Shown: positions 36,524 through 38,087 of the stretch, one piece after another
Position numbering within the stretch: position 1 is the stretch's first letter
Layout of the letters: the number at the start of each line of letters is the position of its first letter
Assembly: GCA_963771045.1 (NCBI GenBank)
Contig: CAVYRW010000004.1
Span: 1,568,001-1,632,000, forward strand
Source: Waddliaceae bacterium
Lineage (GTDB): Bacteria > Chlamydiota > Chlamydiia > Chlamydiales > SLFE01
Length of the DNA stretch: 64,000 nt
Reading direction: 5' to 3'
Notes under the pieces: model-generated
What the model was told of the DNA's origin: nothing
Database searches by the model: none
What the model saw: the letters and a program-made list of their open reading frames with translations, nothing else
Made by a program: the position numbers and the translations under genes

Positions 36524-36582
36524 GGCTTTGTTGCGTAATTAACCACAGAGCTCACAAGAGCGCACAGAGAGAATATGAGAGA
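36524..36582 (+). repeat. Left extended terminal inverted repeat
   Basis: GGCTTTGTTGCGTAATTA-ACCACAGAG-CTCACAAGAG-CGCACAGAG-AGAATATGAGAGA. Confidence 0.88.
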
Positions 36583-36588
36583 TTTGAT

Positions 36589-37533
36589 TTAAGCTGCTAT
36601 TAATTCACTTTCAGGCATTCCCAGCTTTGTCATTATATTTAGTGCTTCACATTTTGCCCTTGATTCAGCCCTTTGGGTTTCCAGAGTTCTACTTCTTAAA
36701 TCATTTCCAAAGAATCGTTTAAATCTAAACATGGCTGTTTCTGCAAGTGATCGACGATGATAACCTTTCAACTTTTTCCATAATTTTCTTGCATCATCAT
36801 CACCTCCTAAACCTGAAATTTCCAGCAAACTGATATTCCGCATCTTCCAAGAAGGAGATATGTTTTCTCGAAAAACAGCATTCCTATTGGGTGGAATAAT
36901 AGGAATTGAGCCGTGAACTACATTTGCAGCATAGCATCGCTTAGTATCATAAGCCCCATCTCCATATGTGCGCTTAACTGATTTCGGCATTACCTCGAGA
37001 AGTTTTGGATACACTTCACAATCTGCAACGTTATTTTCAGTAAGAATTTCGAAAATAATTTCGTGAGAGTCAGGGCAGACTGCCAGATGGAGCTTTCTCC
37101 ATGTTCGCCTTTTACTGATTCCATGCTGCCTAACTTTCCATTCACCCTCTCCGTACACTTTCAAACCGGTTGAATCGATTACAATATTGGTGACTTTTTT
37201 TTTCGAAAGTTTCTTCAACTCTTGCCCCAACAACTTAGCTCTCCGACAAATTTGAGTATAAGAAGGAATCGATAAACCAACAGATAAAATCATAACAAGA
37301 GATGTCAAAAATCCTTCGAGTGCTCTCAATGGAAGATGAAAAACCGATCGAATAATGAGCGCGGTGAGAATAGCGTCATCAGAATAGAGTTTTGGACGCC
37401 CCTTTTTTCCTATTTCTTTTGGAGCCATCCACTTATTGATAGCATCTTCAGAAAACCAAACAGTTATGCTTCCCCTTTGAATAAGAGATTTGTTATAGTC
37501 GTTCCAGTTGCGAATGCGATATTTTGCCTTCAT
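36589..37533 (-). CDS. IS5/IS903-group DDE transposase, intact
   Basis: YRIRNWNDYNKSLIQRGSITVW, IDSTGLKVYGEGEW, RRTWRKLHLAV, GDGAYD, YHRRSLAETAMFRFK. Confidence 0.96.
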   Translation of the reverse strand: MKAKYRIRNWNDYNKSLIQRGSITVWFSEDAINKWMAPKEIGKKGRPKLYSDDAILTALIIRSVFHLPLRALEGFLTSLVMILSVGLSIPSYTQICRRAKLLGQELKKLSKKKVTNIVIDSTGLKVYGEGEWKVRQHGISKRRTWRKLHLAVCPDSHEIIFEILTENNVADCEVYPKLLEVMPKSVKRTYGDGAYDTKRCYAANVVHGSIPIIPPNRNAVFRENISPSWKMRNISLLEISGLGGDDDARKLWKKLKGYHRRSLAETAMFRFKRFFGNDLRSRTLETQRAESRAKCEALNIMTKLGMPESELIAA

Positions 37534-37617
37534 CTTGATCCTCCAATTTGTTGCAACTAAAAATTAGAGTATTAGGTATTTGTCGGCAAGCTCGCATTCG
37601 CCCTTTTTGGAGAAAAG

Positions 37618-38025
37618 ATGACTAGTACCCACACAACTGAAGAAGCCAACCAAAAAAGAAATGACCTTTTAACAGGGGAAATCATAGGTGCTGCGATTGA
37701 AGTTCATCGAAGATTAGGTCCAGGCTTGCTTGAATCGACATACGAAACTTGTCTTTGCTACGAGTTGAACCTTGCGGGTTTGAAAGTTAACCGGCAGATA
37801 CCAGTACCTATTATTTATCGTGATAAAAAGCTAGACTCAGGCTACCGGATCGATATGATAGTGGAAGATAAGGTTATTTTGGAGATAAAATCTGTGGCCA
37901 ATCTCTTGCCTGTTCATGAGGCCCAACTTCTATCCTATCTTAAGCATAATGGCGGTGGCAGAGGTTTGCTCATCAATTTCAATGTAAAACTTCTAAAAAA
38001 TGGGATTAGGCGTCTAATCATTTAA
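37618..38025 (+). CDS. GxxExxY protein (PD-(D/E)XK nuclease superfamily)
   Basis: IIGAAIEVHRRLGPGLLESTY, YRIDMIVEDKVILEIKS, HEAQLLSYLK, GLLINF; GGAG RBS. Confidence 0.93.
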   Translation: MTSTHTTEEANQKRNDLLTGEIIGAAIEVHRRLGPGLLESTYETCLCYELNLAGLKVNRQIPVPIIYRDKKLDSGYRIDMIVEDKVILEIKSVANLLPVHEAQLLSYLKHNGGGRGLLINFNVKLLKNGIRRLII

Positions 38026-38029
38026 TTCC

Positions 38030-38087
38030 TCTCTCATAATCTCTCAGTGAGCTCGGTGGTCTCAGTGGTGATTTATGCAACAACGCC
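38030..38087 (-). repeat. Right extended terminal inverted repeat
   Basis: Minus strand GGCGTTGTTGCATAAATC-ACCACTGAG-ACCACCGAG-CTCACTGAG-AGATTATGAGAGA. Confidence 0.88.

Follow-up and report, generated by a model that had tools for sequence, protein, structure and literature searches.

Why a small insertion sequence (IS) should carry, just inside each of its transposase-type tips, an array of CAC-N-GAG words is the question raised by positions 36524-38087 of the window, the whole 64,000-nucleotide stretch analysed here (Waddliaceae bacterium, GCA_963771045.1, contig CAVYRW010000004.1, positions 1,568,001 to 1,632,000). The element at this place encodes an IS903-group DDE transposase and, divergently, a small protein of the GxxExxY family. 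Comparison with related transposase loci and with GxxExxY genes that stand alone indicates that its ends are very probably chimeric in origin, with the transposase tip outside and GxxExxY-associated repeats inside, as had been proposed from the sequence alone. The explanation favoured here, with somewhat better than even confidence, is that of a transporter IS in which the arrays are putative DNA sites for the passenger nuclease.

Structure of the element

The element is 1,564 bp long and consists of two divergent genes between matching inverted ends, with the following features.

36515..36523 and 38088..38096, plus strand: 9-bp target-site duplication AAATCTTAA, both copies perfect and adjoining the element
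36524..36541, plus strand: IS903-type terminal tip, on the downstream side of the transposase gene; 14/18 match with the IS903B tip of L392
36542..36569, plus strand: left array of three units, with heptamers CACAGAG at 36544-36550, CACAAGAG at 36553-36560 and CACAGAG at 36563-36569
36570..36582, plus strand: left inner 13-bp tail AGAATATGAGAGA, matched in inverted orientation by 38030-38042; 6 nt separate it from the stop codon of the transposase
36589..37533, minus strand: IS5-family, IS903-group DDE transposase of 314 amino acids (D120, D192, E265; NF033579)
37534..37617, no strand: 84-bp spacer between the divergent genes, without a sigma-70 consensus match
37618..38025, plus strand: GxxExxY protein (TIGR04256 / PF13366) of PD-(D/E)XK fold, 135 amino acids, motif G36-x-x-E39-x-x-Y42, predicted catalytic D79, E89 and K91
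38030..38042, minus strand: right inner 13-bp tail AGATTATGAGAGA, 4 nt past the GxxExxY stop codon
38043..38069, minus strand: right array of three units, CACTGAG at 38061-38067, CACCGAG at 38052-38058 and CACTGAG at 38043-38049
38070..38087, minus strand: IS903-type terminal tip, at the end downstream of the GxxExxY gene, 16/18 identical to the IS903B tip

The left end (36524-36582) begins with the tip GGCTTTGTTGCGTAATTA, continues with the units ACCACAGAG, CTCACAAGAG and CGCACAGAG and closes with the tail AGAATATGAGAGA, while the right end, running from 38087 down to 38030 on the minus strand, has the tip GGCGTTGTTGCATAAATC, the units ACCACTGAG, ACCACCGAG and CTCACTGAG, and the tail AGATTATGAGAGA. 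This arrangement, in which an IS903-type tip is followed by three CAC-N-GAG units and then a 13-bp tail, inverted and about 58 bp in all, agrees with the sequence-only reading. The 9-bp period given there holds in outline, but strictly the spacing is 8-9 bp, 97 of the steps between units being 8 bp and 119 being 9 bp in 154 distinct ends of relatives; in 109 of these ends the first unit begins at position 21. The two arms, of 59 bp (left) and 58 bp (right), are 79.7% identical, and local alignment of the parts lying inside the 18-bp tip gave a score of 50; among 20,000 random genomic pairs of equal spacing, 2 scored as high.

Thirty-six of the 39 CACnGAG doublets in the 2.57-Mb genome lie at ends of this element family. 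Two lone doublets, at G000:C4 near 887895 and 2113111, are intergenic, with no tip or GxxExxY gene close by, and are possibly gene-less relics of the repeat family. A promoter scan returned 4 sites, against 4.3 expected, and none within the intergenic spacer.

The transposase matched NF033579 at 289 bits (cut-off 140) and is 44% identical to the IS903B transposase over 312 amino acids, with D120, D192 and E265 conserved in the alignment. Members of the IS903 group are tabulated with a 9-bp duplication and inverted repeats of 15-27 bp (PMC3281130). The element has the DDE transposase type of that group, its GGC(T/G/C)TTGTTG type of tip and its 9-bp duplication, but departs from the group's size of about 1,050 bp, from its single open reading frame (two are present here) and from its shorter inverted repeats. 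It is a derived, passenger-bearing member of the IS903 group.

Association of the arrays with the GxxExxY gene

Whether the arrays belong to the transposase or to its passenger was examined at 110 transposase loci, 30 from 400 chlamydial genomes and the best 80 of 574 metagenome matches. The arrays proved to be coupled to GxxExxY: 81 loci, all complete, had neither array nor GxxExxY, and ten, including three near-identical copies of this element, had both. A further 14 were array-less with a GxxExxY side that could not be evaluated, one bore an array but was cut off (L034), one had an array without a detected gene (L039), two had GxxExxY without a strict array (L247, L250), and one had GxxExxY but no visible end (L246). 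L039, a deletion derivative, still has the C-terminal GxxExxY remnant LKDGIRRLKV. The strict array detector scored L250 and L243 as array-less, and inspection corrected both, L250 having a variant four-unit array at both ends and L243 a decayed array. When periodicity was assessed without reference to any word, at least three phased units were seen only in GxxExxY elements and in L039 (10/109). In a tree of 50 transposases, the nine strictly array-labelled rows lay within one supported clade of 13 rows (100/98).

IS903 itself was said in the sequence-only reading to have no subterminal array, and the annotated IS903B copy (L392) and ISSod12 are indeed array-less. Two other IS903-group elements (L273:39-590 and L276:165-716) hold a different divergent passenger of 183 amino acids at the same position, with no arrays; its N-terminal motif we take to be SEC-C-like.

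Free GxxExxY genes and other captures

The other half of the argument concerns GxxExxY genes away from this transposase. From 98 loci, ten were set aside because they were incomplete or lay too close to the end of a contig, and four adjoined this transposase, leaving 84, of which one (L025) is an IS remnant. With a threshold score of at least 36 and 160 shifted windows as controls, inverted arms were found round 60 of the 84 free genes and in 3 of the 160 controls. By phylum (the phyla being those of one record each), the counts were 10/18 for chlamydial genes, 22/27 for Verrucomicrobiota, 19/27 for Bacteroidota and 9/12 for Acidobacteriota. The statement in the sequence-only reading that stand-alone GxxExxY genes are often flanked by CACAGAG-type inverted repeats stands as regards the arms and in part as regards the exact word; strict CACnGAG doublets occurred on both sides of only 11 of the 84 genes; the remaining free genes mostly use related words (CACGAA, CGCAAAG, CGCAGAG, CAGGAT). 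In a quick GxxExxY tree built on few columns, the ten IS-borne proteins grouped with two free chlamydial genes, L005 and L010 (branch support by the SH-like approximate likelihood ratio test, 95), both of which have CACnGAG arms on either side. It is these free-gene arms, together with the tally of transposase relatives, that support a chimeric origin of the ends. The finding named in the sequence-only reading as fatal to it, arrays in IS903-group relatives lacking GxxExxY but none round free GxxExxY genes, was looked for at both sets of loci and not made.

GxxExxY also occurs in two other IS5-family settings. In L247 the gene lies in the transposase direction and is followed by a gene-less CACAGAG hairpin, the tips being plain, and L036, the sister of L247, has no GxxExxY; on these grounds L247 is an independent capture. 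The second is an unrelated IS5-family element (NF033580) of genome G016, with an arm-GxxExxY-arm cassette directly after the transposase stop codon, seen in four complete copies:

L398-L401 (G016:C15:160600-162800 and three further loci): second IS5-family element with GxxExxY cassette, two-frame transposase, CTTAG-type ends, about 1.4 kb

Judged from their sequences, then, GxxExxY has been captured independently by two further IS5-family elements, and in both the word sits beside the gene, not at both tips. The G016 genome has 61 GxxExxY matches in all, many of them a shortened cassette in IS derivatives or in tandem arrays of about 343 bp (L128, L129, L127).

The passenger protein

The passenger matched the GxxExxY family profile (TIGR04256 / PF13366) at 148 bits, with a cut-off of 35, and has the signature residues G36, E39 and Y42; Pfam assigns PDDEXK_3 only. 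Across 80 sequences D79 and K91 never vary and E89 is conserved in at least 90%, and a structure model from the 80-row alignment had a mean predicted local distance difference test score (pLDDT) of 93.5. The best structural matches were PD-(D/E)XK nucleases (Z 6-7.6, root-mean-square deviation about 3); no single match was clearly ahead, and restriction enzymes, Cas4 and Hjc scored alike in the middling range. The protein is accordingly modelled as a PD-(D/E)XK nuclease with a predicted catalytic D...E-x-K. Foldseek gave no match at E ≤ 0.001, and TnsA was absent among the matches listed, which does not exclude it. RelE was considered as an identity after a search of PDB sequences and dismissed, the matches being weak (E 0.38-0.83) and attributable to chance.

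Ratios of nonsynonymous to synonymous divergence (dN/dS) between this GxxExxY gene and its three closest relatives were 0.029, 0.044 and 0.076, with synonymous distances that are large and imprecise; as far as such comparisons go, the gene is under purifying selection. A predicted complex of transposase and GxxExxY had a score of 0.00 and a mark of 0.32, which counts neither for nor against binding. The family is common: genes above its cut-off were present in 27 of 61 chlamydial genomes and in 15, 20 and 6 of 31 genomes in three other phyla. A superfamily survey gives GxxExxY genes as of unknown function (PMC3424549).

Concerted evolution of the ends and recombination

The two ends of an element resemble each other more than they resemble the ends of its relatives. 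Over the 46 bases inside the tip, mean identity in 11 elements was 0.74 between an element's own ends and 0.58 between elements, a difference that 0 of 20,000 permutations reached, and the own partner was the best match for 8 of 11 ends, spacer lengths included. Independent drift after a single symmetrising event would leave partners no closer than cousins, and we therefore infer that the ends undergo concerted evolution, one being repeatedly re-matched to the other. A Wolbachia element of the IS5 family is a documented case of conversion between terminal repeats (PMC3004938).

One relative, L240, bears on the direction. Its transposase is 71% and its GxxExxY protein 87% identical to those of the present element, and within L240 the identity of the transposase-side end to the GxxExxY-side end is 0.85, which suggests conversion from the GxxExxY-side end to the transposase-side end. 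Synonymous divergence also differs between the two genes (GxxExxY versus transposase, 2.96 versus 0.45 in L033 and 1.16 versus 1.88 in L240), and it appears from these values that the gene modules recombine, GxxExxY being exchanged between elements. A hybrid copy in the source genome (G000:C4:1701314-1704285) changes from about 78% to more than 99% identity within GxxExxY, near element position 1202-1216. It has its own 9-bp duplication, ATTATATAT, and contains a 1,398-bp insertion with an 8-bp duplication, presumably an IS256-family element.

Copies and mobility

The source genome holds 16 full copies of 99.7-100% identity, all with GxxExxY and 12 with a perfect 9-bp duplication, as well as the hybrid copy, fragments and one internally deleted derivative. 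Seven filled loci of a related genome could be tested for empty sites in the window's genome, and two (L168, L170) had one; there the flanks are 74-80% identical and the element proteins 99-100% identical. Movement is recent, given that the proteins are so nearly identical while the flanks are not, and was probably across species. At the window's own locus a clear empty site was not found among four related genomes, and the left end had no match in a plasmid collection. Two of 20 RNA runs contained 5-7% of the search words and gave one short contig each over part of GxxExxY, which is no proof of transcription, and a joint skipping the element was not seen in four RNA runs.

A more distant IS5-family element of the same genome serves as an in-genome control: its transposase is 44-46% identical, its tips are of the GGGTGTGTTGCCTAATTC type, and it has neither arrays nor GxxExxY.

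G000:C4 48248-49138, 400009-400899, 956428-957318 and 2230311-2231192; G000:C1 54924-55532: copies of the distant IS5-family control

On the left the element is adjoined by a CDP-alcohol phosphatidyltransferase gene (window 35647-36281, minus strand), seemingly split in two frames (35955-36281 and 35647-35973), and on the right by a gene with one leucine-rich repeat (window 38140-38853, plus strand). Several genes near the element look frameshifted, which may reflect assembly errors.

Short derivatives

A GTDB-wide scan for a tip followed by two units found at least 108 stretches. The pattern used to pick loci was one base too long, and most true ends matched it only with 3 mismatches. Among the 80 matches listed, 71 were chlamydial, five were from 'uncultured bacterium' and four, with degenerate tips, from other phyla. 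Of 52 distinct two-ended elements, 43 are only 64-509 bp long, and 19 of these 43 have a duplication with at most 1 mismatch. The set of short elements was chosen by the tip-plus-array pattern, and their excess over longer elements is subject to bias, since assemblies tend to break at long elements present in many copies.

The smallest derivatives (64-72 bp, with L099, L116, L155 and L200 at 69-72 bp) are near-perfect tip-array-tip hairpins centred on a GAGCTC/GAGATC-like palindrome between units, and L099, L116 and L155 have perfect 9-bp duplications. One 72-bp derivative sequence recurs at several places in genome G224. Cutting by the nuclease at some constant distance from its array finds no support, as breakpoints of ten deletion derivatives did not cluster at one place. 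A 219-bp derivative in G385 (L114, L115) has IS903-type tips followed by CAGGATAAG-type arrays, and the same word occurs round the free GxxExxY genes L022 and L023, which suggests that arrays of a second type have also been built into ends. Another element, L110 (G011:C49:13215-14722), combines intact chimeric ends and a perfect duplication with an inner insertion carrying two overlapping transposase-like frames.

A probable recognition word rather than a stem

Two roles had been envisaged for the repeats, as binding sites for the nuclease or as a long-range RNA or DNA stem enclosing both genes. When partner ends were compared, the outer six letters of the heptamer differed in 0 of 150 cases, the middle letter in 10 of 25 and the spacers in 30 of 114. 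Thirty of the 40 mismatches between ends are non-pairing on either strand, and those of G-U type split 6 versus 4, without strand bias. Single arms folded no better than shuffled sequences (z -0.08 to 0.74), and Rfam returned 0 matches. Terminators and hairpins were considered as roles for the arms and rejected. Since the genes are divergent, neither gene's own transcript would hold both arms. Taken together, the fixed outer letters, the non-pairing mismatches, the poor folding and the divergent genes are easier to reconcile with a phased word bound by protein than with a stem of RNA. The likeliest reader of the array is the GxxExxY protein, given that the word follows the gene, not the tips, in the L247 and G016 captures.

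Explanations compared

Under the explanation favoured here, an ancestral IS would have captured GxxExxY next to one of its tips, along with the downstream arm at the least, the inner CAC-N-GAG array being inherited from a free GxxExxY cassette. Recombination or gene conversion would then have copied tip and arm to the transposase-side end and would keep the ends matched, turning the whole IS into an enlarged arm-gene-arm cassette. The DDE enzyme would transpose this unit via the tips, the arrays not being strictly needed, and the nuclease would bind the phased CAC-N-GAG words and nick or cut close by. Cutting may favour recombination among copies, producing hybrids, module swaps and deletion derivatives, and the cassette would spread by riding the IS.

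Several observations weigh against this explanation. The 13-row transposase clade includes L244 and L253, whose visible end is array-less, but neither L250 nor L247; the array label requires three changes on the tree, so that a single origin of the arrays is not established. Twenty-four of the 84 free genes fell under the arm threshold, and strict doublets on at least one side were found for 18 (on both sides for the 11 already mentioned). The heptamer count presupposes the motif at one end, the permutation test was made on 11 elements that are related to one another, and the G011 end pair was drawn from two loci. Array-less relatives had a mean end identity of 0.40 (n=75), but matched ends were seen without GxxExxY in L044 (0.67) and L043 (0.61), the highest values, so that conversion is not nuclease-specific, and its direction rests on few cases. 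No member of the GxxExxY family has a solved relative by sequence in the PDB search. Lastly, 27 of the 43 short elements have at least two units at both ends, which fits a transposase role too.

A different view gives the passenger more to do. GxxExxY would be a working partner, bound at the phased CAC-N-GAG sites beside both tips and cutting during or after transposition, either as second-strand nuclease or as the trigger of a recombination that preserves and remodels copies; the element would then be a two-enzyme IS, of a kind that arose at least three times in the IS5 family by fusion of a nuclease with its repeats, a system not yet described, to a DDE transposon. We think this unlikely, though it deserves to be kept in sight.

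It is rather improbable that the arrays merely arrived with GxxExxY and are now passive, preserved by conversion and used by neither protein in the IS. The 95 array-less relatives, several with perfect duplications, are consistent with such arrays, as is a 192-bp derivative family (L091, L092) in which one end's array has decayed while the duplications are perfect; end conversion is, moreover, documented without any nuclease in the Wolbachia element (PMC3004938). However, the outer heptamer letters are fixed while the spacers drift, in elements with saturated synonymous sites, and the passenger is under purifying selection.

That the arrays were co-opted as subterminal binding sites of the transposase, serving transposition rather than the nuclease, seems quite improbable. 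IS21, Tn7 and Mu are elements with multiple end repeats and provide the model; the usual start of the first unit at position 21 (109/154 ends) fits it, and derivatives keep tip plus array down to hairpins of 64-72 bp with perfect duplications (L099, L116, L155). The same word, however, flanks free genes without a transposase close by, goes with the gene instead of marking both tips in L247 and the G016 element, and is dispensed with by close transposase relatives; its retention in derivatives is also explained by nearness to the tips.

GxxExxY as an accessory nuclease of transposition, making the second-strand cut or resolving an intermediate at the arrays, is very improbable. TnsA in Tn7 does this for TnsB, a PD-(D/E)XK gene and a DDE gene have here travelled together in one transposase clade, arrays adjoin both tips at a fixed distance, and the fold is common to restriction enzymes, Cas4 and Hjc. 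Nevertheless GxxExxY is missing from relatives whose tips and 9-bp duplication are the same, the gene has seemingly been exchanged between elements (L033 and L240, above), and other IS903-group elements hold the unrelated 183-residue passenger at the same place.

Scarcely probable, too, is action of the arms by base-pairing, as a long-range stem of RNA or single-stranded DNA round both genes: the two 62-nt ends can pair (predicted RNA duplexes of -70 and -65 kcal/mol, DNA about -39), partner ends keep matched spacer lengths, and in free cassettes one mRNA could hold both arms, but here each array follows the stop codon of one of two divergent genes, only read-through from a host promoter would span both arms, and the mismatches and folding are as described above. 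A transient fold-back of the ends in single-stranded DNA is possible.

Significance and comparison with known systems

The element is a natural experiment on GxxExxY, in which arms 1.45 kb apart, behind divergent genes, have kept their words and remained matched; this points to recognition at the DNA level, with the phased CAC-N-GAG as candidate site. As a compact, recently mobile unit of 1.6 kb, in which nuclease, sites and transposition output are separately mutable in a laboratory strain, it lends itself to testing what this enzyme family does. An influence of the nuclease on transposition or retention would make it an IS accessory enzyme of a new type; if it has no such effect, the element would still exemplify transposon ends rebuilt from a passenger's repeats. 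No description of this element or of GxxExxY arms was found in the literature searched, and the papers listed for GxxExxY gave passing annotations; ISfinder and subscription papers lay outside the search, so that the element is possibly catalogued there.

Tn7 encodes a PD-(D/E)XK-fold nuclease, TnsA, with a DDE transposase, TnsB, and has repeated sites inside its ends. The present element shares the pairing of such a protein with a DDE transposase and the repeated sites within the ends, but has no TnsC or target-selection genes, has sister elements without the nuclease, and gives no sign of cooperation between the two enzymes. RAYT is a Y1 HUH transposase gene with cognate short inverted repeats (REP/REPIN), of which many gene-less copies exist, and an enzyme gene with cognate short inverted repeats and many gene-less copies is likewise seen here. 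Mobility, however, is by a DDE transposase with 9-bp duplications, only DDE and PD-(D/E)XK proteins are encoded, and single arms fold no better than chance. The non-autonomous deletion derivatives of 64-509 bp are like the miniature inverted-repeat transposable elements (MITEs) of other IS elements, but, unlike usual MITEs, they carry heptamer arrays, and the smallest are near-perfect hairpins.

IS903 and IS903B share with this element the DDE transposase (44% identity), the tips (14-16/18) and the 9-bp duplication, but are about 1,050 bp long rather than 1,564 bp, have repeats of 15-27 bp rather than 58-59 bp, and lack the second divergent gene and the heptamer arrays. A transporter IS (tIS) is described as a derivative of an IS with a passenger gene enclosed by the IS ends (PMC9330008). 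The element agrees with that definition, its passenger lying inside the IS ends and moving with them, but differs in that the passenger brings cognate repeats that are now part of both terminal repeats, a situation of which no case was found in the literature searched. The element is neither an Ssn nor a RAYT system, and Ssn is its closest tested analogue by likeness of organization: this small nuclease of the GIY-YIG type binds the NTS/SRM repeats beside its gene and cuts single-stranded DNA, and REP/REPIN with RAYT are mentioned alongside it (PMC11893778). In both, a gene for a small single-domain nuclease, predicted in the present case, is flanked by repeats of its own that are also found gene-less; in Ssn the nuclease is of the GIY-YIG type and the repeats are hairpins, whereas here a PD-(D/E)XK protein is accompanied by single arms that are not hairpins.

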